From IMG/VR virus record IMGVR_UViG_2563366905_000008: DNA of 36,308 bases; one strand, 5' to 3'. Origin of the DNA: a virus. Its lineage: Duplodnaviria; Heunggongvirae; Uroviricota; Caudoviricetes. Made by a program: the position numbers and the translations under genes. This document shows, piece after piece, positions 2,252 to 32,697 of this stretch. The notes below the pieces were generated by a model, which was not told where the DNA came from, searched no databases, and saw nothing but the letters and a program-made list of their open reading frames with translations. Numbering within the stretch: position 1 is the stretch's first letter; each line of letters begins with the position of its first letter.

Positions 2252-2638
2252 TTAATCCCGGTCGTCATCCGGTTCGTCATCGTCTTCAAATAACTGCCCC
2301 TGTAACCGGCTGATTTCTTCTTTTCTTACACGCTTCACCACGCTGTAGACCCACTGAAGCGAAACACCAAATTTGCGGGCCAGTTCGTGGTGGTTGCGTC
2401 CGTTAAACTCCCTGAAGATTTCCCGGTCGCGCTGACTGACCTTCCATACCATGCCCATCGGAAAATAAACGTTTTGCCCGCCCCAGACCTGCATCATGCG
2501 GTTCGCGACGGCCTGACCAATCTGGTCGGCAACTTCGGGCTCAATATCAATAATCTCGCGAACGGTCTCAGAGGTATGCTGTGCCAGTTCCACCAGGAGT
2601 TCCGGCCCTTTACTTCGAAACTGATTCAGGTCGCTCAT
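2252..2638 (-). CDS. mor: Mor/C-family transcriptional activator (Mu middle operon regulator-like)
   Basis: 128 aa; C-terminal HTH region REIFREFNGRNHHELARKFGVSLQWVYSVVKR and acidic tail typical of Mor/C proteins; sits after the GemA-like gene as in Mu. Confidence 0.75.
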   Translation of the reverse strand: MSDLNQFRSKGPELLVELAQHTSETVREIIDIEPEVADQIGQAVANRMMQVWGGQNVYFPMGMVWKVSQRDREIFREFNGRNHHELARKFGVSLQWVYSVVKRVRKEEISRLQGQLFEDDDEPDDDRD

Positions 2639-3059
2639 GTTTGACTCCCGCAGCTCTGTGCTGCCACTTCTTCAGTTTCTCAATAACACTGCTTGCCTGT
2701 TCAGTACTGAGCCAGCGCAGGGCGCTGATGCCCGTTTCCCGCTTGATCCACCTCGCTAATGCATTTTCTGAACGGTCACGAACAATGCCGGCAGCAGCCA
2801 TTTCAAGCCATAGCGCACGAATTTTCCTGGACTGCGGATGGTTATCCAGCGGTAAACCGGAGCTGGCTTTTCTGGCTGGTTTAACGCGAAAGCCTTTCTT
2901 TTTCATGGATTCCAGCACGCAGTTTAGTTGTGTGGTATCCATTCCTTTGGTTGAGGCTTTACCGGTCAGCCCCTGTAACATCTGGCGGTAGGTGTCTTCA
3001 TCCATACCCAGTTCATTACGGGCAATATGGATAAGCTGTATCAGGCGTTTTTTCTGCAT
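2610..3059 (-). CDS. gemA: GemA-like protein (Mu gp16 / DUF1018-like)
   Basis: 149 aa; N-terminus MQKKRLIQLIHIARNELGMDEDTYRQML matches the GemA-family pattern as I recall it; positioned immediately upstream of mor. Confidence 0.65.
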   Translation of the reverse strand: MQKKRLIQLIHIARNELGMDEDTYRQMLQGLTGKASTKGMDTTQLNCVLESMKKKGFRVKPARKASSGLPLDNHPQSRKIRALWLEMAAAGIVRDRSENALARWIKRETGISALRWLSTEQASSVIEKLKKWQHRAAGVKHERPESVSK

Positions 3060-3060
3060 A

Positions 3061-3267
3061 TCATCTCCTTTTTTTCAGTCTGTCGGCAACAATGTCGGTT
3101 GCAGCTGGCAGGGTGACTGGCCAGAACAACATGACGGCGGTCATGTACAGGATGTAATGCGCGGTGTCGTAGTGCCTGCCATAGCCCAGGGAACGATGAA
3201 GTCTTGCGCTGCATGATCCTGCGTACATATACCAGAAAAGAAAACAGACAATGGTTTCAGTAGTCAT
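3061..3267 (-). CDS. Small membrane protein (68 aa), hypothetical
   Basis: Internal ATG at 3267 of track ORF 3061..3423, preceded by GGGGAGG about 8 nt upstream. Product MTTETIVCFLFWYMYAG... has two hydrophobic helices. Confidence 0.45.
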   Translation of the reverse strand: MTTETIVCFLFWYMYAGSCSARLHRSLGYGRHYDTAHYILYMTAVMLFWPVTLPAATDIVADRLKKRR

Positions 3268-3487
3268 TCTGAATACCTCCCCATTCGATATGAATATTAC
3301 GGGCAGCAATGACAGGGTCGTTATTCCACCATGCACCTGACATGTATTTTTCAACCTGTTCGCGTCCGGCAATAACACCAATTGTGATCCCCGGCCTGAC
3401 GTTCTTAAAAAAGGCGCGGGCAAAAAGGTATCTGGCAGATATTCGGCAGGCTTTTAATTTCCGGCTTTTACCTGATAGCGTAATCAT
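3257..3487 (-). CDS. Hypothetical early protein (76 aa)
   Basis: ORF tightly packed between neighbouring early genes on the same strand. Confidence 0.4.
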   Translation of the reverse strand: MITLSGKSRKLKACRISARYLFARAFFKNVRPGITIGVIAGREQVEKYMSGAWWNNDPVIAARNIHIEWGGIQNDY

Positions 3488-4167
3488 CTGGCCTCCAGTT
3501 TCTGTTGTGCCTGCCCACTGACCGGGCGGTGCAGTCTGACGTTCTGCCCTTCACGAAACCCCGCATAGCGCGAGGCGTCGCCATTGCGGCTTCTTCCCGG
3601 TTTACGCGCTCTGGTGGTTTGCGTTTGCGGGTATTTATGTTCCAGCCACTGCTGCATCAGTTCACGTTCGTCATCGGTCAGGGCGAAGGACTGTATTTCA
3701 CTGATAACGGCCAGCACCCAGCCTTCAGCAAACTGGTCACCACGGCTGGTACGGGTGGCAGTTTTTATTCTTTTGTTCTGTGTGCTGATATACTGCTGAC
3801 GCGCCTTTTTCAGCTGACGGGCCAGCACTTCCCAGGTGTATGCAGCCAGTGCCGCACGTTCCCGGTTGCCGTAGAACCCCACACCCGGATATGTGCCGGG
3901 GTGAATGATGGAGTTAACACCAAATGCCTCGCGGATGATGTTCATCAGGCCCAGCATGTAGCGCGGTGGACGGAGACTGCCTGTCGGCCAGTAATGACTG
4001 ATGGTTTCATCAATATCACTCATGGCAATGTCGGAATGTGTGATGCCGTGAACATCCATCAGTTTACGGGCACGGCGCAGTGCCAGAGCGGCCTCGTGTG
4101 GGTTGCCGGATGCGGCCAGCGCCAGCAACTTTTTCAATTTCTCAATGTGTTTATTCTGGTCTGTCAT
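3484..4167 (-). CDS. Hypothetical early protein, possibly DUF2786-like
   Basis: 227 aa; N-terminal KLKKLLALAASGNPHEAALALRRARKLM motif; stop overlaps next gene start (ATGA-type coupling). Confidence 0.6.
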   Translation of the reverse strand: MTDQNKHIEKLKKLLALAASGNPHEAALALRRARKLMDVHGITHSDIAMSDIDETISHYWPTGSLRPPRYMLGLMNIIREAFGVNSIIHPGTYPGVGFYGNRERAALAAYTWEVLARQLKKARQQYISTQNKRIKTATRTSRGDQFAEGWVLAVISEIQSFALTDDERELMQQWLEHKYPQTQTTRARKPGRSRNGDASRYAGFREGQNVRLHRPVSGQAQQKLEAR

Positions 4168-13198: not shown

Positions 13199-13218
13199 TC
13201 TTAACGCGCTTTAAAATC
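13199..13218 (+). promoter_or_regulatory. Candidate late promoter element, copy 1 of TCTTAA-N5-TTTAAWATC
   Basis: TCTTAAcgcgcTTTAAAATC, 50 bp upstream of the first lysis gene; same motif and spacing recur at 26296 and 32647. Confidence 0.35.
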
Positions 13219-13268
13219 CTTCGCGCCCTGTATTTGTGATGCTGTCTCCACCAGACAAGGAGACACAC

Positions 13269-15618: not shown

Positions 15619-16169
15619 TTATGGGACGTCGCAGCAGCATTGATTCTCTGCCGACGGAGGTCCGCCGCTGGCTGGAGCGGGCACTGACGGAGAATAACTT
15701 CAGTGGATATGCCCGGCTGGAAGCCCTGCTGAAGGAGAAGGGATACGTCATCACCCGCTCTTCCCTGCAGCGGTTTGGCTACAAAATGGAGCGACAACTG
15801 GCCCGCATCCGCGCCGCCACCGAGGCCGCGCGTCTGATGGCACAGGAAGCCGGTGACGAGGCGGACGATCGTTCTGCCGGGATGATGGCACTGATTCAGA
15901 CCGAGATGCTGGATGTTCTGATGCGTCTGCAGGAAATCGGGGAAAATGATGACCCTGCAAAACGCGCAAAACTGCTGGCCACTGCTTCGGAAAGTATAGC
16001 CACACTGGTACGTGCTTCGGTGACCCACAAGCGATTCCGGGCCGAGGTTCTGGCAAAAATTGAGGCCCGGATGAATGCTCTGGAAAAACAGGCGAAGTCC
16101 GGTGACACCCGCCTGAGTCTGGAAACCCTGAAGATGGTGCGGGAACAGATTTACGGGGTGATCTCATGA
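15615..16169 (+). CDS. Terminase small subunit-like protein (Mu gp27-like)
   Basis: N-terminus MGRRSSIDSLPTEVRRWLERAL matches the conserved start of Mu gp27-family proteins as I recall it; immediately upstream of the large terminase. Confidence 0.6.
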   Translation: MIMGRRSSIDSLPTEVRRWLERALTENNFSGYARLEALLKEKGYVITRSSLQRFGYKMERQLARIRAATEAARLMAQEAGDEADDRSAGMMALIQTEMLDVLMRLQEIGENDDPAKRAKLLATASESIATLVRASVTHKRFRAEVLAKIEARMNALEKQAKSGDTRLSLETLKMVREQIYGVIS

Positions 16170-17482
16170 CAGCGGCCATTCAGCTGTATCCCTACCAGCA
16201 GGCGTGGTTTCTGGATCGTGCCCGTTTCAAGATTGGCATGTTTGCCCGCCAGACGGGCAAGACGTTCACCACCACGCTGGAACTGGTTGATGACTGTTTT
16301 GAAACAGAGGCATCAGGGGGACGCACTCGCTGGGTGATCCTATCGCGTGGGGAGCGTCAGGCAAAAGAAGCCATGGTGGAGGGGGTGAAAAAACACTGCA
16401 GCGCCTACCGGATGGCGGCCCGTGAGGTGGAAAGTTATTACCGTGCTGAAAGCGGCGAACGCTACACCATGCTTGAGGTGGAGTTACCCGGTGGCTCCCG
16501 TATCACGGCCCTGCCGGCAAATCCCGACACGGCACGTGGGTTTGCGGCTAACGTCTTTCTGGATGAGTTCGCCTTCCATGCCGACAGTCGCAAAATCTGG
16601 ACCGCCCTGTTTCCGGTCATTTCCAACGGCTACAGACTGCGTGTGACATCGACGCCGAACGGCAAGGGAAACAAGTTTTATGAACTGATGACCAGCAACG
16701 CCCTTGAAAATGTCTGGTCACGTCACATCGTGGATATTTACCGTGCCGTGCGCGACGGCCTTCCGCGTGACATTGCACAGATGCGACAGGCGCTCAACGA
16801 TGATGACGCCTGGGCACAGGAGTTTGAACTGAAGTGGCTGGATGAGGCATCGGCCTGGCTGACGTTTGAACTGATTGACGGCGTGGAGCACGATGCTGCC
16901 GGACTGCCGGTGCACTATACGGGTGGCCCCTGCTTTGTGGGGGTGGATATTGCTGTCCGTAATGACCTGTTTGTGATCTGGGTGCTTGAACAGGTGGGGG
17001 ATGTCTACTGGACCCGGGAAATCATCACCCGTAAACGGGCCACCTTTGCTGAGCAGGATGCTTTGCTGGATGACGTATTTTTCCGTTATCGCGTGCTGCG
17101 CTGCTGTATGGATCAGACAGGAATGGGGGAAAAGCCTGTGGAAGATGCTCAGGAGCGCCACGGCAGGAGTCGTGTGGAGGGGGTGATATTTAACAGCCCG
17201 AACAAGCTCACCCTCGCGACCCGTGGCAGGGAGATGTTTGAGGACCGCCGCCTGCGTATTCCGGCGGGAGATGTGGTACTGCGCAGTGATCTGCATAAAC
17301 TCCGTAAGATCACCGGACCTACCGGAGCGCCTCGCTTTGTGGCGGAAAGTGATGCAGCAGGTCACGCCGACCGTACATGGGCCTGTTTTCTGGCTATTAA
17401 CGCCACTGACGGACCGTCAGGGCCGGTGGTGGCGCGTTCGCGCCGCCGCCGTGAAGCCGCCCGCATGCTGGAGGGATTCTGA
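16166..17482 (+). CDS. Terminase large subunit
   Basis: 438 aa; Walker A-like ARQTGKT near the N-terminus; acidic nuclease-type motifs in the C-terminal half; position between small terminase and portal. Confidence 0.85.
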   Translation: MTAAIQLYPYQQAWFLDRARFKIGMFARQTGKTFTTTLELVDDCFETEASGGRTRWVILSRGERQAKEAMVEGVKKHCSAYRMAAREVESYYRAESGERYTMLEVELPGGSRITALPANPDTARGFAANVFLDEFAFHADSRKIWTALFPVISNGYRLRVTSTPNGKGNKFYELMTSNALENVWSRHIVDIYRAVRDGLPRDIAQMRQALNDDDAWAQEFELKWLDEASAWLTFELIDGVEHDAAGLPVHYTGGPCFVGVDIAVRNDLFVIWVLEQVGDVYWTREIITRKRATFAEQDALLDDVFFRYRVLRCCMDQTGMGEKPVEDAQERHGRSRVEGVIFNSPNKLTLATRGREMFEDRRLRIPAGDVVLRSDLHKLRKITGPTGAPRFVAESDAAGHADRTWACFLAINATDGPSGPVVARSRRRREAARMLEGF

Positions 17483-20282: not shown

Positions 20283-20326
20283 GGGGCTGTATTACCTTTA
20301 TAAAGGCTTTACAGCCTCTGTTTTAT
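20283..20326 (+). terminator. Candidate intrinsic terminator after G-like gene
   Basis: Stem GGCTGTA / TACAGCC with an inner CCTTTATAAAGG palindrome, followed by TCTGTTTTAT. Confidence 0.45.
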
Positions 20327-20377: not shown

Positions 20378-20397
20378 TTCTAAAGCAGATTAAAATC
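20378..20397 (+). promoter_or_regulatory. Degenerate copy of the late-promoter motif upstream of the scaffold/protease gene
   Basis: TTCTAAagcagaTTAAAATC, about 55 bp upstream of the ATG at 20453; 4/6 and 8/9 matches to the two halves of the motif. Confidence 0.3.
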
Positions 20398-20452
20398 GCC
20401 GGGCCTGCATTTCTCACAAACTGTCTCCGACAACATAACGCGGGACAGCAAA

Positions 20453-21568
20453 ATGTCAGCCATTCACATTTTTAAAGCCGGTACTCATACCGATATGCAC
20501 GGCAAAAAACTGCCGTTCACGCCAGACGATCTTGCCGCCTGCGTGAAAGCCTATGACCCGTCCGTCCATGAAGCACCACTCGTGATTGGTCATCCCAGAA
20601 CGGAAGACCCGGCGTGGGGCTGGGTGAAAACCCTGTCGCTCAGCGGTGTCGATCTGATGGCAGAGCCTGCCCAGCTGGATCCGCAGTTTGCTGAGATGGT
20701 CACCGACGGACGATTCAAAAAAGTGTCCGCCTCTTTCTATCTCCCGGATTCACCGTCCAATCCGAAGCCCGGCGTGCTCTACCTTCGCCATGTGGGCTTT
20801 CTCGGGGCACAGCCACCTTCCGTCAAGGGGCTGAAACAGGTGTCCTTCAGTGAGCAGGAAGAAGGTGTGGTGGAGTTCGCCGACTGGCAGGCAATCACGA
20901 ATGCCTCCCTGTGGGGAAAGCTGCGCGATTTTCTGATCGCCCGCTTCAGTCTGGACGAAGCAGAAAAAGTCCTGCCGGAATGGCAGCTCAACAGTCTGCG
21001 CGAAGAGGCGTACCGCGACACACTGTCGCAGGATGCAGCAGGTGCACAATTCAGTGAGACAGGCCAGGTGCCGTCTTCCGCAAGTAACGAGGAATCATCG
21101 ATGACAAAAGAAGAGATTGAAGCCCTTCAGGAGGAGAACCGCCGCCTGAAGCAGCAGGCTGCTGATCGCGATGCGCGTGATGCACAGGTCAGACAGGAGC
21201 AACTGCATAAGGACAATGTGGCCTTTGCAGAAAAACTGGTCGCAGAGGGCCGTCTGGCTCCCCGCGCCTCCTCCGTGGTGGTTGCCCTGCTGGATGCCGT
21301 CGCCGGTGGCGACAAGCCGGTGGAGTTTGCTGAGGGGGAAAGCCGCACGCCGCTGGCCACCGCCTTCCGTTCATTGCTCTCCGACGGGGAGCCGGTGATG
21401 AATTTCGCCGAACAGGCCACAAAAGAGCGTGTCGGCGACACGGTGAAGGTGGATGTGGCGGAGTTTGCGGAAGCCGATCCTGAGCGTCTGGCCCTGCATC
21501 AGAAAGCAGTGGCCCTGTCGAAAAAAGAAGGCATCAGCTATGAGGCTGCTGTCGCACGCTGCCTGTAA
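20453..21568 (+). CDS. Head protease/scaffold protein (Mu I-like)
   Basis: 371 aa; central charged coiled-coil (EEIEALQEENRRLKQQAADRDARDAQVRQEQ); position immediately before the major capsid gene. Confidence 0.75.
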   Translation: MSAIHIFKAGTHTDMHGKKLPFTPDDLAACVKAYDPSVHEAPLVIGHPRTEDPAWGWVKTLSLSGVDLMAEPAQLDPQFAEMVTDGRFKKVSASFYLPDSPSNPKPGVLYLRHVGFLGAQPPSVKGLKQVSFSEQEEGVVEFADWQAITNASLWGKLRDFLIARFSLDEAEKVLPEWQLNSLREEAYRDTLSQDAAGAQFSETGQVPSSASNEESSMTKEEIEALQEENRRLKQQAADRDARDAQVRQEQLHKDNVAFAEKLVAEGRLAPRASSVVVALLDAVAGGDKPVEFAEGESRTPLATAFRSLLSDGEPVMNFAEQATKERVGDTVKVDVAEFAEADPERLALHQKAVALSKKEGISYEAAVARCL

Positions 21569-23796: not shown

Positions 23797-24047
23797 TGAA
23801 AGAATACCGCTATTCCGGCCCGGCCAGCGGCGTCACGCTGTCGGACGGAACCGAAATCCTGCTCTGGCCGGGGAAGACGGTTTCCCTGCCGGAGGAGCAT
23901 GACTACGTGAAGGTACTGGTGGCGCTGAAGCATCTGACGCCGGTACCTGAAGAGACTAAACCCGCCGTCACACCGGCTGTGCAGTCACCAAAGCGCAGAA
24001 GCAGCAGTGACAGCGAAGTGAAAACGGAGGACTCCCATGGCAGCTAA
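23793..24047 (+). CDS. Small hypothetical structural protein (84 aa)
   Basis: Coupled ORF directly upstream of the sheath gene. Confidence 0.5.
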   Translation: MMKEYRYSGPASGVTLSDGTEILLWPGKTVSLPEEHDYVKVLVALKHLTPVPEETKPAVTPAVQSPKRRSSSDSEVKTEDSHGS

Positions 24048-25464
24048 CTATCTGCATGGCGTCGAAACCATTGAGGTGGAAAACGGTGCCCGCCCGGTTA
24101 AAACGGTGAAATCTGCCGTTATTGGCCTGATTGGTACCGCACCAATGGGGGACGTCAATACGCTGGTGCAGTGCCTGTCTGAGAAAGATGCTGCTGCGTT
24201 TGGCAACCAGCTCACCGGCTTTACCATTCCGCAGGCGCTGGATGCGATTTATGACCATGGTGCAGGCACCGTTCTGGTCATTAACGTCCTCGACCCGGCG
24301 AAACATAAAACGGCGATCGAGGATGAGGTGGTTACCTTTGACAAATCGACAGGGCAGGCCAGACTGGCGCATCCGGTTGTCGCTAATGTGGTGGTGAAAA
24401 ACAGTGAAGGCAGCACCGCCCACACGGCGAACACGGACTACCGTGTTGATGCGCAGGCGGGTGTGCTCACGAACCTGGGCAAGGCTATTGAAGCCGGTGG
24501 CAGCGTGAAGGTGAGCTATGAGTACGCGGACCCGTCGAAGGTGACTGCGGCGGACATCATCGGCGGGGTGAACAGCGCCGGAAACCGTACCGGCATGAAG
24601 CTGCTTAACGACAGCTTTAACCTGTACGGCTATTTCGCCAAAATTCTGATTGCGCCAGTGTTCTGCACCCAGAAGAGTGTCGCAGTTGAGCTTATCGCCA
24701 TGGCAGAGAAGCTGGGCGCGGTAACCTACATTGATGCTCCTGTCGGTACCACCTTTGCACAGGCTCTGGCAGGTCGTGGCCCGGAAGGCACCATCAACTT
24801 CAATACCAGCTCCGACCGCGTCCGTCTGTGCTATCCGCACGTCAAGGTGTACGACGCGGTCACCAACAGCGAACGGCTGGAGCCGCTGAGCCAGCGTGCT
24901 GCAGGTCTGCGTGCCAGGGTCGACATGGACAAGGGTTACTGGTGGTCGTCCTCCAACCAGGAGATTCTGGGTATCACTGGTGTGGAGCGCCAACTGTCAG
25001 CAATGATTGACGACCCGCAGAGCGAGGTGAACCTGCTCAACGAACAGGGGATCACCACGGTATTCAGCAGTTACGGCAGCGGCCTTCGTCTGTGGGGTAA
25101 CCGGACGGCAGCATGGCCAACGGTCACCCATATGCGTAACTTTGAGAACGTTCGCCGCACCGGTGATGTGATCAACGAGTCCATTCGTTATTTCAGCCAG
25201 CAGTACATCGACATGCCGATTACTCAGGCGCTGATTGATGCACTGACGGAGTCGGTCAACGCCTACGGTCGCAAAATGACTGGTGATGGTGCGGTACTGG
25301 GCTTCCGTTGCTGGTTTGATCCGGCCCGCAATCCGGAGACGGAGCTGGCCGCCGGGCACCTGTTGCTTAGCTACAAATATACGCCACCACCGCCGCTGGA
25401 GCGACTGACGTATGAGACTGAGATCACCTCGGAATACCTGTTAACCCTGAAAGGGGGCAACTGA
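24037..25464 (+). CDS. Contractile tail sheath protein
   Basis: 475 aa; position before the tube gene; size typical of P2 FI / Mu L-like sheath. Confidence 0.85.
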   Translation: MAANYLHGVETIEVENGARPVKTVKSAVIGLIGTAPMGDVNTLVQCLSEKDAAAFGNQLTGFTIPQALDAIYDHGAGTVLVINVLDPAKHKTAIEDEVVTFDKSTGQARLAHPVVANVVVKNSEGSTAHTANTDYRVDAQAGVLTNLGKAIEAGGSVKVSYEYADPSKVTAADIIGGVNSAGNRTGMKLLNDSFNLYGYFAKILIAPVFCTQKSVAVELIAMAEKLGAVTYIDAPVGTTFAQALAGRGPEGTINFNTSSDRVRLCYPHVKVYDAVTNSERLEPLSQRAAGLRARVDMDKGYWWSSSNQEILGITGVERQLSAMIDDPQSEVNLLNEQGITTVFSSYGSGLRLWGNRTAAWPTVTHMRNFENVRRTGDVINESIRYFSQQYIDMPITQALIDALTESVNAYGRKMTGDGAVLGFRCWFDPARNPETELAAGHLLLSYKYTPPPPLERLTYETEITSEYLLTLKGGN

Positions 25465-25985
25465 TGTCAAAGATTGAGATAAACCGAATCACGAATGCCA
25501 ACATCTATCTGGATGGTACTAACCTGCTGGGACGGGCTGAGGAAGTTAAACTCCCCGATGTCTCCATGATTATGCAGGAGCACAAGGCACTGGGGATGGT
25601 GGGTAAGGTGGAACTCCCGGCTGGTTTTGACAAACTGGAAGGCGAAATCAAATGGAACAGCTTTTACCGCGATGCGATGCTGTCTGCCGCGAACCCGTAC
25701 AGGTCGCTGGCACTGCAGTGTCGTTCCAGCGTCCAGCGCTACAGCTCGCAGGGGCTGATCGACGAAATCCCGCTGGTCACCTTCCTGACGATTATGTTCA
25801 AGAAGAACCCGCTGGGGACGTTCAAACAGCACGAGAACGCCGAGTTCTCCAGTAGCTTCACCTGCACGTATATCAGACAGGTACTGGATGGTGAAGAGCT
25901 GCTGCAACTGGACTATCTGGCCAACATCTTCCGGGTCGGCGGTGTTGATCAACTGACTGACTACCGCATCAATATCGGGGGCTGA
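25464..25985 (+). CDS. Tail tube protein
   Basis: 173 aa, ATGA-coupled to the sheath gene; P2 FII / Mu M-like size and position. Confidence 0.8.
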   Translation: MSKIEINRITNANIYLDGTNLLGRAEEVKLPDVSMIMQEHKALGMVGKVELPAGFDKLEGEIKWNSFYRDAMLSAANPYRSLALQCRSSVQRYSSQGLIDEIPLVTFLTIMFKKNPLGTFKQHENAEFSSSFTCTYIRQVLDGEELLQLDYLANIFRVGGVDQLTDYRINIGG

Positions 25986-25987
25986 CG

Positions 25988-26269
25988 GTGACCGTCGAGA
26001 TTGAAGATAAAGGCGGAAACTGTGGTTCGATTGGTATGGGGAATGGCACGTGGTTTACCCTCCTTGATATTCCGGGGGTGGAACACCTTTTTAATACCCA
26101 GAAAACCAATGACCCGATTGACTGCACACGTTCAAAGGCCCGCAAACTGGCGGATTTGATTGAGGCATGGGAGCCTCCCGACCACTGGTTCTCCGGCACC
26201 GGCAAATCTGAAGGAAAGGCACTTCTCATCGCCTTCCTGCGTAACTGCAAAGGCTTTCGCACTCGCTGA
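25988..26269 (+). CDS. Hypothetical small protein (93 aa), possible moron inside the tail operon
   Basis: GTG at 25988 two nt after the tube stop with a G-rich RBS; complex, non-repetitive product; followed directly by an intrinsic terminator. Confidence 0.4.
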   Translation: MTVEIEDKGGNCGSIGMGNGTWFTLLDIPGVEHLFNTQKTNDPIDCTRSKARKLADLIEAWEPPDHWFSGTGKSEGKALLIAFLRNCKGFRTR

Positions 26270-26275
26270 CATCAC

Positions 26276-26299
26276 AGGGGCTTCGGCCCCTTTCTTCTT
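26276..26299 (+). terminator. Intrinsic terminator after the 93-aa ORF
   Basis: GGGGC-TTCG-GCCCC hairpin followed by TTTCTTCTT. Confidence 0.55.
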
Positions 26300-26315
26300 A
26301 ATCCCCTTTAATATC
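26296..26315 (+). promoter_or_regulatory. Candidate late promoter element, copy of TCTTAA-N5-TTTAAWATC
   Basis: TCTTAAtccccTTTAATATC, 52 bp upstream of the tail chaperone start; overlaps the T-tract of the preceding terminator. Confidence 0.35.
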
Positions 26316-26367
26316 TGCCAGCCTCACCACCGGACATACTGCTCTGAACTTACACAGGAGCACGATC

Positions 26368-26703
26368 ATGTCACAGACCCAGTCCGATACTTTTACGCTG
26401 TCTTATCCCTTCACCACTGCTGCCGGTACCAGAATTGAGCAGGTTGAACTGAAACGCCTGACGGTAAAAGACCTGAAGCAGGTGCGCAAAATCAGCAAAA
26501 ACCCGGCAGACTGGGACGAACCGCTGATTGCCCGCAGTACTGGTCTTCTCCCGGAAGATCTCGACAATATGGACCTGGCTGATTACCTGCAGTTACAGAA
26601 ACGATTTCAGCTCATCACGGGGATGGGTGAGAGCGACAAAGGCGCTGACGCAGGCGCAGGGGCTGCTGGCGAGATGGTTCCGGTTTCAGCCGGGGGAGAT
26701 TGA
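26368..26703 (+). CDS. Tail assembly chaperone, short form (P2 E-like)
   Basis: 111 aa with AGGAG RBS; position between tube and tape measure genes. Confidence 0.7.
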   Translation: MSQTQSDTFTLSYPFTTAAGTRIEQVELKRLTVKDLKQVRKISKNPADWDEPLIARSTGLLPEDLDNMDLADYLQLQKRFQLITGMGESDKGADAGAGAAGEMVPVSAGGD

Positions 26704-26785
26704 TGCCCTCGATACTGACGATCTGGAGATGTGGCTGGAGCAGGCTGAAGAGCAAATCAAAAGCGAGTACGGCGACAAATCATAG
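26368..26785 (+). CDS. Putative frameshifted long form of tail assembly chaperone (E+E'-like), +1 frame extension
   Basis: A second ORF (track 26528..26785) in the +1 frame overlaps the 3' end of the chaperone gene. Only its C-terminal part (EIDALDTDDLEMWLEQAEEQIKSEYGDKS) looks protein-like. The -1 frame gives an Arg-rich, implausible peptide. Confidence 0.35.
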
Positions 26786-26860
26786 TACAGACAGCCGCCA
26801 GTAGCGGCTGTTCTGCGTTATCCCCTCACGTCTTTTCACCTTCCCCGGAGGTTAACCACT

Positions 26861-29812
26861 ATGTCGGGACAGTTTTCAGTCGGCGTTGTTATCGGCGGGA
26901 TGATTGGCAGCACATTCCGTTCTGCAATGAGCGGTACCCGCCGTGCGCTTGATTCCCTGAGCGATACCTCACGCCGCCTGCAGGAACGTCAGAACGCTTT
27001 AACCCGTGCAACAGAACGTTATGGTCAACTGGGTTCTTCCCGGATGCAGCATCTCAACAGCGAGCTGCTGCGGGTAAGCCGCACCATGGAGCAAATTGAG
27101 CGCCAGCAGCGCCGTCTGTCAGCGGCATCCGCTACCAGTGATGCGCTGAAAGCTAACCGCATGGCGCTGTATGGTCAGGGGATTGAAGCATATGGCATGG
27201 CACAGACTGTTTATCATACGGTTTCCCCTGCCGTTCAGCAGTCCATGTCTTTTCAGGACAAAATGATTGATATGTCGATCACCGCAAAATATGACAATAA
27301 AACGCGGGATGCACTTGCCGGACAGATAAAAGGCTGGGCGCTTAAATACAATCAGTATCAGGATGAGCTGCAGGAGGCGGTGGGTTCGCTCATCAGCGAC
27401 AATATTGATAACTTGTCAGATATCGGTTTTCTGATGCCGGATATTGCCCGCGCGGCAACGGCAACACGCACGTCATCTCAGGACTGGGCAAAAGTGGCCG
27501 CAGTCTGGCAAAACTCCCTGAAAGGTGCCGCCAGAGATTTTGGTGCCGTTCAGAATATTATGGCTTATGCCGGTGACCAGGGGTCATTTGAAATCCCGGA
27601 TCAGGTCAAATGGATGCAGTCCCTGGCCCCAATGATGGCGGGCGTTGCCAGTGGAAAAGAGGCTGTTGCTGAAATCGGAGCCAGTCTCCAGATAGCAAAA
27701 ATCGGTGCAGGTTCCACCGACGAAGCAGCCAATAATTTTAAAAACTTTCTTACCAAAATTTTTGCCCGCGATACTCAGAAACAGTTTGCTGATCTGGGTA
27801 TTGATTTGCAGGGATCTATTGCGAGTTATAAGGCTGCGGGGATCTCTCCGATTGAAGGGATGTTGAGTGTTATAGAACGTTACCTCAATGCCAAAAGCCC
27901 CGAAGCGCTGGCCGGCTTCAAATCTGCCATGAAAATAAAGAATGATACGGCAAGAGATGAGGCACTTCAGGCTCTGGCGAAAAACTTTGGTCTGGGTGAT
28001 ATGTTCGCGGATATGCAGGTCATGGCATTTATCCGCCCGATGCTGGCCAACATGGACAGATATCGCGAGATCCGCGCCGGTGCTCTCAGGGCTGCGGATA
28101 ACGATTTGCTTGCCAGTGCTTATGATCAGCGGCTGAAATCTCCCCTTGAAGCCACTAAAGCACTTATGGTCAGCAGTCGCGATCTGGCTATTACGCTGGG
28201 CGATCAACTCGCCCCCTCTTTTATTTCTCTGACTCAGGAGTTGATCCCACTCATTCAGGGGACAAAACACTGGGTAGCGACTCACCCGCAATTTGTCAGT
28301 GGGGCTTTTAAGCTCATCAGTGCGCTCCTTGCGATTAAGATAGCGACTGTTGGTCTCAAACTGGGGCTGAATCTCCTTATTTCCCCCTTTGTGAACGTCT
28401 GGAAAACTGCTGTTTTACTTCGGGCCAACTGGCTTCGTCTGTCGCTCGCACTGGGGCAAGGCGGTAAGCTCCGCTGGCTGGTGACCGGATTTAGCGCCGT
28501 CGCCAGAGGAGCCAGAACACTGAGTGGCGTGCTCTCCGGGGGGCTGGTTCGCGGAATTATGCTCGCCGGACGTGCTGTTCTCTGGATTGGACGTGCGCTG
28601 ATGATGAATCCCATCGGTCTCGTTATCACCGCTGTCGCGGCAGCAGCTTACCTTATCTACCGCAACTGGGGGGCAGTCAGTGGCTGGTTTAAACAGCGCT
28701 GGGCAGACATTCAGGAAGCCTTTAACGGCGGCATTGTGGGAACTGGTAAGTTGCTGATTAACTGGTCGCCGGCAGGCCTGCTCTATAAAGCCTTTGCGGC
28801 TGCGCTGAAATATTTCGGCGTTGCTCTGCCGGCAAAGTTCACCGACTTCGGTGGCCATCTTATCGACGGTCTGATTAACGGTATCAAAAACAAATGGGGG
28901 TCGCTCAAATCCAGTGTAACCGGAATGGGTGACAGCATCAGTAGCTGGTTTAAACAGTGCTGGGCTGACATTCAGGAAGCCTTTAACGGCGGTATCGCGG
29001 GAACTGGTAAGCTGCTGATTAACTGGTCGCCGGCAGGTCTGCTCTGTAAAGCCTTTGCAGCTGCGCTGAAATATCTTGGTGTTGATCTGCCGGCAAAGTT
29101 CACCGACTTCGGTGGCCATCTTGTCGACGGTCTGATTAACGGTATCAAAAACAAATGGGAGTCGCTCAAATCCAGTGTAACCGGAATGGGTGACAGCATC
29201 AGTGGCTGGTTCAGCGAAAAGCTGGGCATTCATTCGCCGAGCCGCGTGTTTATGGGCTTTGGTGACAATATCGCGCAGGGGGCCGCCATTGGCCTGCAGC
29301 GGACCACTCCGCTTGCAGCTCTGGCCGGGCAGCGAATGGCCAGTGAACTGCTCCCCAGAATGCCCGTGAGCATTCAGGGGCCAGAAATACGGGATAACAC
29401 TTCAGGTGTTCGCTTCAGTATGCCGTTGCCCGATATCAACGGGTTTATGTCGTCTGCTAAAAATGCGATCGGAGCCGTAATCAATAGTTTGTCTTCCATG
29501 CCCGTTATTCCGCTCTCCACCCGGGCATCGGTTTTACCAGGGCAACGTCTGGCAAATGAGATGACACCGGATGTTCCCCGTATCCCCTCGCCTGAAATCC
29601 TGGCTGCCGGATATTCAGGCCGTGGTGCAGCTGCAACCGGCGGTGGAACGTCTGGTGGTATCCAGGTCAGCTTTAATCCTCAGTTTTTCCTCAATGGCAG
29701 GGAAACCACAGCGCCTGCAGGACTGACTGGTGCCCTGAATATGAGTCTGCATGAGCTGGAAAAAATGCTGGAGCGTCTGCTGGCTCAGAAACAACGTAAG
29801 GAGTACCGCTGA
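26861..29812 (+). CDS. Tail tape measure protein
   Basis: 983 aa, largely helical, central hydrophobic segments and Gly-rich C-terminal part; follows the chaperone pair. Confidence 0.85.
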   Translation: MSGQFSVGVVIGGMIGSTFRSAMSGTRRALDSLSDTSRRLQERQNALTRATERYGQLGSSRMQHLNSELLRVSRTMEQIERQQRRLSAASATSDALKANRMALYGQGIEAYGMAQTVYHTVSPAVQQSMSFQDKMIDMSITAKYDNKTRDALAGQIKGWALKYNQYQDELQEAVGSLISDNIDNLSDIGFLMPDIARAATATRTSSQDWAKVAAVWQNSLKGAARDFGAVQNIMAYAGDQGSFEIPDQVKWMQSLAPMMAGVASGKEAVAEIGASLQIAKIGAGSTDEAANNFKNFLTKIFARDTQKQFADLGIDLQGSIASYKAAGISPIEGMLSVIERYLNAKSPEALAGFKSAMKIKNDTARDEALQALAKNFGLGDMFADMQVMAFIRPMLANMDRYREIRAGALRAADNDLLASAYDQRLKSPLEATKALMVSSRDLAITLGDQLAPSFISLTQELIPLIQGTKHWVATHPQFVSGAFKLISALLAIKIATVGLKLGLNLLISPFVNVWKTAVLLRANWLRLSLALGQGGKLRWLVTGFSAVARGARTLSGVLSGGLVRGIMLAGRAVLWIGRALMMNPIGLVITAVAAAAYLIYRNWGAVSGWFKQRWADIQEAFNGGIVGTGKLLINWSPAGLLYKAFAAALKYFGVALPAKFTDFGGHLIDGLINGIKNKWGSLKSSVTGMGDSISSWFKQCWADIQEAFNGGIAGTGKLLINWSPAGLLCKAFAAALKYLGVDLPAKFTDFGGHLVDGLINGIKNKWESLKSSVTGMGDSISGWFSEKLGIHSPSRVFMGFGDNIAQGAAIGLQRTTPLAALAGQRMASELLPRMPVSIQGPEIRDNTSGVRFSMPLPDINGFMSSAKNAIGAVINSLSSMPVIPLSTRASVLPGQRLANEMTPDVPRIPSPEILAAGYSGRGAAATGGGTSGGIQVSFNPQFFLNGRETTAPAGLTGALNMSLHELEKMLERLLAQKQRKEYR
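28685..29206 (+). repeat. In-frame tandem duplication (2 x 261 bp) inside the tape measure gene
   Basis: Copy 1 28685-28945 and copy 2 28946-29206 encode 87-aa units differing at 8 residues (WFKQRWADIQEAFNGG... vs WFKQCWADIQEAFNGG...). Confidence 0.8.
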
Positions 29813-30696
29813 TGTTTGCCGTACTGGGTGATATTGAGTTTGAGCTGATTACCTACTGGGACGGCTTCGAGGCCACGTTCGGCGTCGATTATGCGGAGCA
29901 TGCCCGCATCGGGGGTAAGCCTGGCCTGCAGTTCGTCGGCGACAGGCTGGACGAAATCCAGATAACTCTGGTTTTCCATCAGCATTATTGTGTACCCGAC
30001 GTGGAGCTGGCGAGACTGCGAACAGCCATGAAAGCCCATCAGGCACTGGCGCTGGTCTTCGGCAACGGTGACTATCGCGGCTGGTTCGTGATTACCGATG
30101 TGACTGCAACCAGCGAGCAGACTGACAGTACCGGCAACGTGCTGGCTGTCAGTGCCACCGTGTCTCTCCGGGAATACACCGGTGACCCGAAAAATCCTCT
30201 GCAACCACCGGCAATACGCACGAAGCTCCCGGGTGTCGGGGCGGTCTCCGGTGCCATTCCTTCACCTTCAGGGGTGGCGCAGTTCATCCGCAACGGCGTC
30301 AACTATGCGAAACAGGCGCAGTCTGTACTCCAGACCACTATCAGCGCCGTTCGGGTGACACAGAAAATGAAGGATAACCCCGTTGTCGCACTGACCCGTG
30401 TGCCGGGGCTGATGAGCGGACTGGGTAATATCTCCGGGGCTCTGGGGAAAAGTGTTCCGGCGTTTAACGCACTCTCTGAATCCATGCCCGATGCCATCAG
30501 TCTGGCCAGAACAGCCAGCGAAGCAGCCACGTATGTACAGCAGGCACAGTCTGCGCTGAGTGGTGTGGACAAAAGAAATATTGCAGGTGCTCTGGATACC
30601 GTTTCCGGGCAGCTTAACGCCGCCGGCACAGCATTCAACCGCATGTCTCCGGGATTAAGTGCAATGGCCGCCAGAATACTGACGAGGAGTGTGTGA
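29812..30696 (+). CDS. Tail protein with P2 gpU-like N-terminal domain and Ala/Ser-rich C-terminal extension
   Basis: ATGA-coupled to the tape measure gene; N-terminal ~130 aa resemble gpU-type tail proteins; position after the tape measure gene. Confidence 0.6.
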   Translation: MFAVLGDIEFELITYWDGFEATFGVDYAEHARIGGKPGLQFVGDRLDEIQITLVFHQHYCVPDVELARLRTAMKAHQALALVFGNGDYRGWFVITDVTATSEQTDSTGNVLAVSATVSLREYTGDPKNPLQPPAIRTKLPGVGAVSGAIPSPSGVAQFIRNGVNYAKQAQSVLQTTISAVRVTQKMKDNPVVALTRVPGLMSGLGNISGALGKSVPAFNALSESMPDAISLARTASEAATYVQQAQSALSGVDKRNIAGALDTVSGQLNAAGTAFNRMSPGLSAMAARILTRSV

Positions 30697-32646: not shown

Positions 32647-32666
32647 TCTTAAACGCCTTTAATATC
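32647..32666 (+). promoter_or_regulatory. Candidate late promoter element, copy of TCTTAA-N5-TTTAAWATC
   Basis: TCTTAAacgccTTTAATATC, 32 bp upstream of the W-like ATG. Confidence 0.35.
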
Positions 32667-32697
32667 GGCGTTCCCGCACAGGGGCAATACTGCCCCC

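Follow-up and report, generated by a model that had tools for sequence, protein, structure and literature searches.

A selectively maintained but dispensable DUF7739 gene between the tail tube gene and a putative terminator and late promoter in a BcepMu-like prophage of Escherichia coli

Burkholderia phage BcepMu (Bcepmuvirus) joins Mu-like transposition and head genes to a P2-like tail module. Late promoters of the P2 Ogr type follow the pattern TGT-N12-ACA. The late promoters of Mu contain a -10 hexamer and no -35 element, and a dimer of the C protein occupies a 16-bp dyad centred at -43.5 (PMC2582627). A moron is by definition an independent transcriptional unit (PMC3594210). Here, we describe ORF93, a 93-codon gene located between the tail tube and tail assembly chaperone genes of an E. 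coli prophage. Our explanation, to which we assign a probability of roughly 70%, is that in this BcepMu-like prophage ORF93 is a selected but dispensable cargo gene at an ancestral junction of a terminator and a Mor-type promoter.

The window that we analysed, meaning the whole 36,308-nucleotide stretch of DNA of IMG/VR virus record IMGVR_UViG_2563366905_000008, is a BcepMu-like transposable E. coli prophage with a P2-type tail module. A prophage of E. coli strain A20 is identical to the window across this segment, Escherichia phage PhiKM, classed as Bcepmuvirus, is ~95% identical, and the phages closest to the window are Bcepmuvirus by classification. The initial annotation had spoken of a P2-like phage. 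This description holds for the tail module, which encodes a sheath of FI type (PF04984/PF17482), a tube of FII type (PF04985), chaperone E (PF10109) and gpU (PF06995), but not for the rest of the phage, which is of Mu type, with an rve transposase, a Mor-family activator, head genes of the Mu F/G type and a Mu-type portal. A holin and an SLT lysin are also encoded in the window. The late promoter type here would likewise be that of Mu Mor/C and not that of P2 Ogr. The prophage family occurs in ~12% of complete E. coli genomes, ST131 among them. The genes and elements referred to below are as follows.

2255..2638, minus strand: gene for a Mor/C-family transcription activator (PF08765, E 9e-44)
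about 13269 (true start), plus strand: holin gene (Holin_2-3, E 1e-40)
24037-25464: sheath gene
25464..25985, plus strand: tail tube gene, P2 FII type (PF04985, E 3e-53)
25988..26269, plus strand: ORF93, GTG start, 93 aa, DUF7739 / phrog_1239 (phrog_1239, E 2e-45)
26276..26300, plus strand: intrinsic-terminator-like element, a stem-loop at 26276-26291 and then the T-tract TTTCTTCTT
26356-26360, plus strand: AGGAG ribosome-binding site of the chaperone gene
26368-26703, plus strand: gpE-like tail assembly chaperone gene (PF10109, E 2e-22), with an overlapping E' frame
26861-29812: tape measure gene
29812-30696: gpU gene

Several other features of the tail and terminase genes were seen. The E' frame of the chaperone (26528-26785) is offset by +1, and not by -1, from the E frame (26368-26703), and a GGGGG run just ahead of the E stop codon (GCC GGG GGA GAT TGA) could be the shift site. 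Between the E' stop and the start of the tape measure gene (26786-26860) lies a second hairpin, CAGCCGC-CAGTA-GCGGCTG, with a poor T-tract. Part of the tape measure gene, at about 28600-29150, encodes a near-perfect tandem duplication of ~88 aa, in which SWFKQ.WADIQEAFNGGI...GMGDSIS occurs twice, and the tape measure protein is 983 aa long in the window versus 821 aa in phage KP12; the longer tape measure would predict a longer tail than that of KP12. The large terminase ORF (16166-17482) encodes 438 aa, compared with annotated lengths of 531 aa (PhiKM) and 507 aa (KP12). As neither Pfam terminase domain is truncated, the gap in length is probably a matter of start-codon choice or of an N-terminal extension.

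ORF93 is a real gene. As first described, it is a GTG-initiated ORF of 93 aa that follows the tube stop, its start codon lying 2 nt past that stop and its end 6 nt ahead of the hairpin. In order to follow it in relatives, we considered the 72 IMG/VR loci at which an orthologue lies beside a nearly identical tube gene. Intact copies, each exactly 282 nt in length, are found at 64 of these, and all 64 start at the same codon position, with GTG in 49, ATG in 13 and TTG in two, which fixes the start of ORF93. The median dN/dS across 44 alleles (881 pairs) is 0.087, with a mean dS of about 0.7. A reverse-strand ORF at 25969-26262 (97 aa) was dropped from consideration, as homology and codon-level selection are all on the plus strand. 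Homology searching and structure prediction had both been proposed as checks in the initial annotation: the phrog_1239 match is full length, spanning residues 1-92 of 93, and the AlphaFold2 model is a compact and confident alpha/beta fold (pLDDT 89, pTM 0.80). It could be argued that the 282 nt are instead a non-coding spacer or decayed remnant next to a hairpin that alone is functional, given that the start codon is GTG and that the ORF is missing or broken in some close relatives that still have the hairpin. However, the identical length of 64 of 72 copies, the low dN/dS at a mean dS of that size, and the relatives found by profile, among them full-length homologues of 40-55% identity in unrelated phages, refute this reading, the confident fold also counts against it, and we give it practically no weight.

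The family to which ORF93 belongs is already catalogued as DUF7739, and ORF93 itself is labelled hypothetical in hundreds of genomes. In a direct Pfam scan ORF93 matched PF24881 (DUF7739) with 20.9 bits (E 5.5e-4) over residues 16-65 only, which is below the Pfam gathering cut-off of 27 bits. Relatives of 87-88% identity carry precomputed PF24881 annotation. A profile built from ORF93 and its phage homologues finds 172 relatives, many of them named DUF7739, and the alignment profile retrieves 'DUF7739 domain-containing protein' records with E-values from 1e-40 to 1e-44; the clade found in the tail operon forms a divergent branch within DUF7739. A scan of 1.84 billion representative proteins gave 82 clusters at 50% identity, nearly all of which consist of proteins of 90-100 aa that stand alone. 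We also considered P0144, P0151, P0139, P0148 and other members of greater length as informative fusions and set them aside, since most look frameshifted or mis-called; one of them, judged by eye, may have a YopX-like C-terminal part fused to it. The ORF93 product has a pI of 6.7, with 12 acidic and 12 basic residues, whereas most family members have a pI of 8-9.7.

That ORF93 is inserted between the tube and chaperone genes had been proposed at the outset, along with a comparison of synteny among related prophages, and the comparison upholds the proposal. The tube gene adjoins the chaperone gene, and ORF93 is missing, in BcepMu (tube protein 67% identical to that of the window), in a Salmonella STM4212-type prophage (74%) and in Pseudomonas phage Bise (53%), as well as at nine IMG/VR loci that encode tube proteins sharing 91-97% identity with that of the window. 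A Photorhabdus prophage carries a 67% identical copy of ORF93 in exactly the same slot, indicating that the acquisition is old within the enterobacterial branch. Among 641 complete E. coli genomes that carry the segment, 632 cover at least 80% of a 1.5-kb query, which is impossible without the ORF; ORF93 is therefore present in those 632 genomes. About eight of the 72 orthologues are disrupted, three by nonsense mutations, four by frameshifts that may be sequencing errors, and one by an in-frame deletion. In all, the ORF is absent or interrupted with the hairpin kept at about 17 of 81 IMG/VR loci. The initial annotation had held that such a pattern would indicate only a terminator. The pattern itself is there, but this conclusion is not borne out, because purifying selection acts strongly on the intact copies, and what the pattern does indicate is dispensability and not absence of a gene. 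ORF93 is dispensable for virion production, yet selection maintains it.

The slot between the tube stop and the hairpin has variable content in relatives: it is empty, or it holds DUF7739 alone, a Phage_gp49_66 gene together with DUF7739, or a phrog_9518 ORF. At ten loci (L061 and nine others, with a tube-chaperone gap of about 665 nt), a 97-aa Phage_gp49_66 (PF13876) gene lies upstream of DUF7739, and at L083 (gap of 336 nt) an unrelated 66-aa phrog_9518 ORF takes the place of DUF7739. ORF93 is a horizontally acquired accessory gene, an instance of the ordinary kind of phage mosaicism. Phage Bise has a reverse-strand ORF of 96 aa at 3463-3753, between its chaperone and tape measure genes, which is likely a further case of inserted cargo, at another junction within this tail module. 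What the slot illustrates is how accessory genes can join a tightly packed tail operon without control signals of their own, by entering the short stretch that separates the last strongly expressed structural gene from a terminator already in place.

A clean GC-rich hairpin followed by a T-tract had been reported at the end of the ORF, and folding agrees with that report. The hairpin at 26276-26291, AGGGGC-UUCG-GCCCCU, has a 6-bp stem (5 GC) and a UUCG loop, folds at -11.8 kcal/mol (z -2.6) and ranks first among the plus-strand terminator-like sites of the 20-kb late region. Its U-tract is interrupted, with 7 U in 9 nt, and given this and the short stem, termination may be partial. At junctions that lack the ORF, a GC-rich hairpin and T-tract come directly after the tube stop, as in BcepMu (GGCCCGC-TTCG-GCGGGCC-TTTTTT), in the Salmonella prophage (TTCGGGGC-TGC-GCCCCGAA-TTT) and at L057 (GGGGGCC-GCAA-GGCTCCC-TTTCTTCTT), L069 and L074. 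We compared seven junction hairpins that differ in sequence, from loci with and without the ORF; their stems are of unequal length and not alignable by column, so each hairpin was folded separately, and all of them fold, at -11.8 to -24.1 kcal/mol. At L078 and L085 the promoter motif described below is kept and no hairpin was found at the junction. Since relatives without the ORF have a hairpin, a T-tract and the same motif, the putative terminator and promoter are ancestral. The hairpin is thus older than ORF93 at this junction, and only the ORF was added, upstream of the hairpin.

The sequence beyond the hairpin contains a conserved element, copies of which occur elsewhere in the window. Its parts and copies are as follows.

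26296..26315, plus strand: conserved block TCTTAATCCCCTTTAATATC, from the footprint of 49 unique junction sequences
26316..26334, plus strand: spacer of variable sequence and constant length, sitting where a -35 hexamer would be
26335..26348, plus strand: conserved block CATACTGCTCTGAA, with a candidate -10 hexamer CATACT (26335-26340) and a predicted start at A 26347/26348
13201..13244, plus strand: putative late-promoter motif upstream of the holin gene
20304-20317: weak hairpin preceding the 20380 motif copy
20380..20423, plus strand: weaker motif copy, with 2 mismatches, upstream of the protease/scaffold gene at 20453
26298-26341, plus strand: putative late-promoter motif upstream of the chaperone gene
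32649..32692, plus strand: motif copy between baseplate gene V and gene W (32698)

The initial annotation had noted a late promoter-like motif after the hairpin, and the conservation of the block ending at 26315 across 49 unique junctions, together with the four copies in the window, strengthens that observation. The footprint of these 49 junctions consists of a conserved TCTTAAT(Y)(Y)CCTTTAATATC, a 20-nt spacer, a conserved CATACTGCYCTGAA and then the chaperone ribosome-binding site; the spacer is free in sequence, and its length never changes. Relatives without ORF93 have the same CCCTTTAATATC...CATACTGCTCTGAA motif after their hairpin. Block TCTTAATCCCCTTTAATATC contains two TTAA half-sites spaced by 10 bp, or one helical turn (26298-26301 and 26308-26311), and the centre of this TTAA-N6-TTAA dyad, at 26304.5, falls at -42.5 or -43.5 depending on whether the predicted start is A 26347 or A 26348. 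No -35 element is recognisable in the spacer at 26316..26334, a region that varies in sequence among relatives. The block is a candidate binding site for an activator of the Mor/C family, centred about -43 from the predicted start.

A search with the 12-mer turned up related copies ahead of the holin gene and gpW, both with TCTTAA at a distance of exactly 5 nt on the upstream side and ATRCTG at exactly 20 nt on the downstream side. With up to 2 mismatches allowed, TTAA-N6-TTAAWATC-N20-ATRCTG is matched four times in the window and not once in 100 shuffles, a comparison to be read with the knowledge that the pattern was derived from three of its four sites and that the 20380 copy and the V-W site of BcepMu are only semi-independent. 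All four copies are on the plus strand and intergenic, ahead of the holin, protease/scaffold, chaperone and gpW genes, and the candidate -10 hexamers among them are CATACT, AATACT and GATGCT. The V-W junction of BcepMu keeps GCTTTAATATC / CTTTAATATC. The motif looks like an activator-dependent late promoter of the Mor/C type, the product of the gene at 2255-2638 is the presumed activator of the four late promoters, and the four copies look like the complete set of such promoters for the prophage family. Inspection by eye of 26293-26367 revealed no P2 Ogr-type late promoter, and none would be expected, because the encoded activator is of the Mor type. We found no description of BcepMu late promoters in open papers, nor an open paper describing the copies that make up the four-promoter set of this prophage family; the present comparison provides a testable map of four putative Mor/C-type late promoters for this E. 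coli prophage family.

A terminator-like hairpin followed by a late-promoter-like element agrees with the earlier suggestion of a transcription-unit boundary at this site. We propose that the tube-chaperone junction is an ancestral boundary of two late transcription units. The head-sheath-tube message would probably begin at the 20380 promoter and would stop, at least partly, at the 26276 hairpin. About 5 bp beyond the terminator, the Mor/C-type promoter at 26298, composed of the TTAA-N6-TTAA dyad near -43, a CATACT -10 and no -35, would restart transcription for the chaperone, tape measure and later tail genes. ORF93 was inserted into the short gap that separated the tube stop codon from this hairpin and, as the final cistron on the abundant sheath-tube message, it would be transcribed at a late stage. 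The last codons of the tube gene, ATC GGG GGC TGA, hold a Shine-Dalgarno-like GGGGG run (25977-25981) 6 nt upstream of ORF93, and translation could start at the GTG 2 nt past the tube stop with this run as ribosome-binding site. Given this place at the end of the message, with the tube stop 2 nt and the GGGGG run 6 nt upstream of its start, ORF93 should be made late and in quantity. Terminator activity, promoter activity, the timing of expression and function are all inferred here from sequence and comparison.

The same evidence bears on whether ORF93 is a moron, which the initial annotation had suggested on the strength of a gene-terminator-promoter layout. A canonical moron would be transcribed autonomously, between a promoter and a terminator that belong to it, and the repressed prophage would express it for the benefit of the lysogen, for example as a superinfection exclusion or fitness factor. 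ORF93 has some of the expected attributes: its flanking genes are neighbours in relatives, a terminator-like element stands downstream, the DUF7739 family moves between unrelated phage types, and 632 of 641 E. coli genomes that carry the segment have kept the gene. However, a moron is required to be an independent transcriptional unit (PMC3594210), and a consensus scan found no promoter of its own directly upstream of ORF93, where the tube stop codon is merely 2 nt away, and no sigma-70-like promoter in the 3' half of the tube gene; the sole sigma-70-like site that the scan detected on the plus strand of 24000-28000 is at 24200, although a scan of this kind may miss weak or unusual promoters. 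Insertion between the tube stop and an older terminator would leave ORF93 without a promoter of its own, as it appears to be. Co-acquisition of the terminator with ORF93 is contradicted by the relatives without the ORF, which already have the hairpin, T-tract and motif at the junction, so the putative terminator is ancestral to the junction and was not brought by the gene. The GC content of ORF93, at 52.5% versus 53-55% in neighbouring genes, is not atypical. The layout therefore does not make ORF93 a moron, and we consider the canonical moron reading unlikely.

Lambdoid and P22-like phages carry homologues of ORF93, at 40-55% identity, in their early-left accessory region, where these adjoin recombination genes, RdgC, Ea22, Lar and Abc2; examples are those in Sf6 (gene 22), HK75, CUS-3, EPP-1, an Enterobacter phage, and prophages of Plesiomonas and others. 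Late expression of ORF93 fits poorly with this early-operon position of most family members. A further homologue, at 3001-3309 of Yersinia phage fHe-Yen8-01, an SSU5-like phage-plasmid, is annotated 'particle associated protein'. Its neighbours include other particle-associated proteins, and a gene for a giant ADP-ribosyltransferase toxin lies nearby. If that annotation rests on virion proteomics, it is relevant to the function of DUF7739; no supporting paper was found for it, and our search found no papers containing 'DUF7739', 'phrog_1239' or 'fHe-Yen8-01'. Together with the late operon, the position straight after the tube gene and the presumably high expression, this annotation could point to a morphogenetic or virion role, with ORF93 encoding a tail-assembly accessory factor or minor virion protein of the enterobacterial lineage, such as a tube-associated or injected protein. 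Nevertheless, ORF93 is missing from BcepMu and from nine relatives with a 91-97% identical tube, about eight of 72 orthologues are disrupted, the fHe-Yen8-01 annotation has no paper that we could find behind it, and most members of the family lie in early-left operons, including that of the podovirus Sf6, which has no tail tube. A morphogenetic role is improbable given this absence from close relatives and presence in a podovirus.

Searches of PADLOC and NCBIfam with ORF93 gave no matches, a sequence search of the PDB with the family profile gave none even at E 10, Foldseek gave no match below E 0.08 against the PDB, and its matches in BFVD are uncharacterised phage proteins only. Tentatively, the product of ORF93 may be a small soluble alpha/beta protein that binds and modulates a host or defence protein. 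A more specific and considerably more doubtful suggestion is that DUF7739 is a new counter-defence or host-takeover family of small proteins, and that in this Mu-like lineage its gene left an early operon and settled behind the sheath and tube genes, at the end of their transcript, for co-production with structural proteins. The product might then neutralise a host immune sensor that responds to late virion proteins (the tail tube, for example), or it might be packaged in virions ready for the next infection. Mobility among unrelated phages, the anti-restriction and anti-RecBCD gene neighbours in lambdoid phages and the one 'particle-associated' homologue fit such a role, as do the nearest structural neighbours, which are protein-binding inhibitors and immunity proteins at non-significant Foldseek scores. 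If DUF7739 is an anti-defence factor, the slot would be useful for finding others. One of these neighbours is Neisseria DMP12, and it is conceivable that the ORF93 product is likewise a DNA mimic that binds HU or another DNA-binding protein. However, the Foldseek E-value to DMP12 is 0.29, no PDB chain has sequence similarity to ORF93, and whereas DNA mimics are acidic, the ORF93 product (pI 6.7) is balanced in charge and most of its family is basic (pI 8-9.7), making such a function very improbable.

Comparison with described systems places the features of this locus in context. Small alpha/beta proteins such as Neisseria DMP12, E. coli YfbM and CdiI(E479) differ from ORF93 in lacking any sequence similarity to it, and their Foldseek matches are non-significant. 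The proteins of DUF7739 (Pfam PF24881)/PHROG 1239, for example the gene 22 protein of Shigella phage Sf6, are homologous over their full length, are about 93-102 aa long, and have in common with ORF93 the invariant residues N19, W22, A55 and F83 and a C-terminal C-x-G-F-R motif; most of them, however, belong to early-left (PL-type) regions of lambdoid and P22-like prophages, whereas the ORF93 clade resides in a Mu-like late tail operon. As with the morons of lambdoid phages (Juhala/Hendrix; Cumby et al. 2012, PMC3594210), ORF93 is an extra, horizontally acquired gene between genes that are adjacent in relatives, a terminator-like element lies downstream, and the content of the slot differs among relatives. 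Unlike those morons, ORF93 appears to be promoterless, the putative terminator predates the insertion, the base composition is not atypical, and expression is predicted late in the lytic cycle and not from the prophage. BcepMu shares with the window its gene order, a tube protein of 67% identity, and a hairpin and T-tract separating the tube and chaperone genes, but its tube gene leads to the hairpin with no ORF between them. [quoted passage not shown] They differ in that the TTAA-N6-TTAA dyad is known, by sequence, from this phage group alone, and in how the late genes are partitioned, with a boundary predicted between tube and chaperone in the phage described here.
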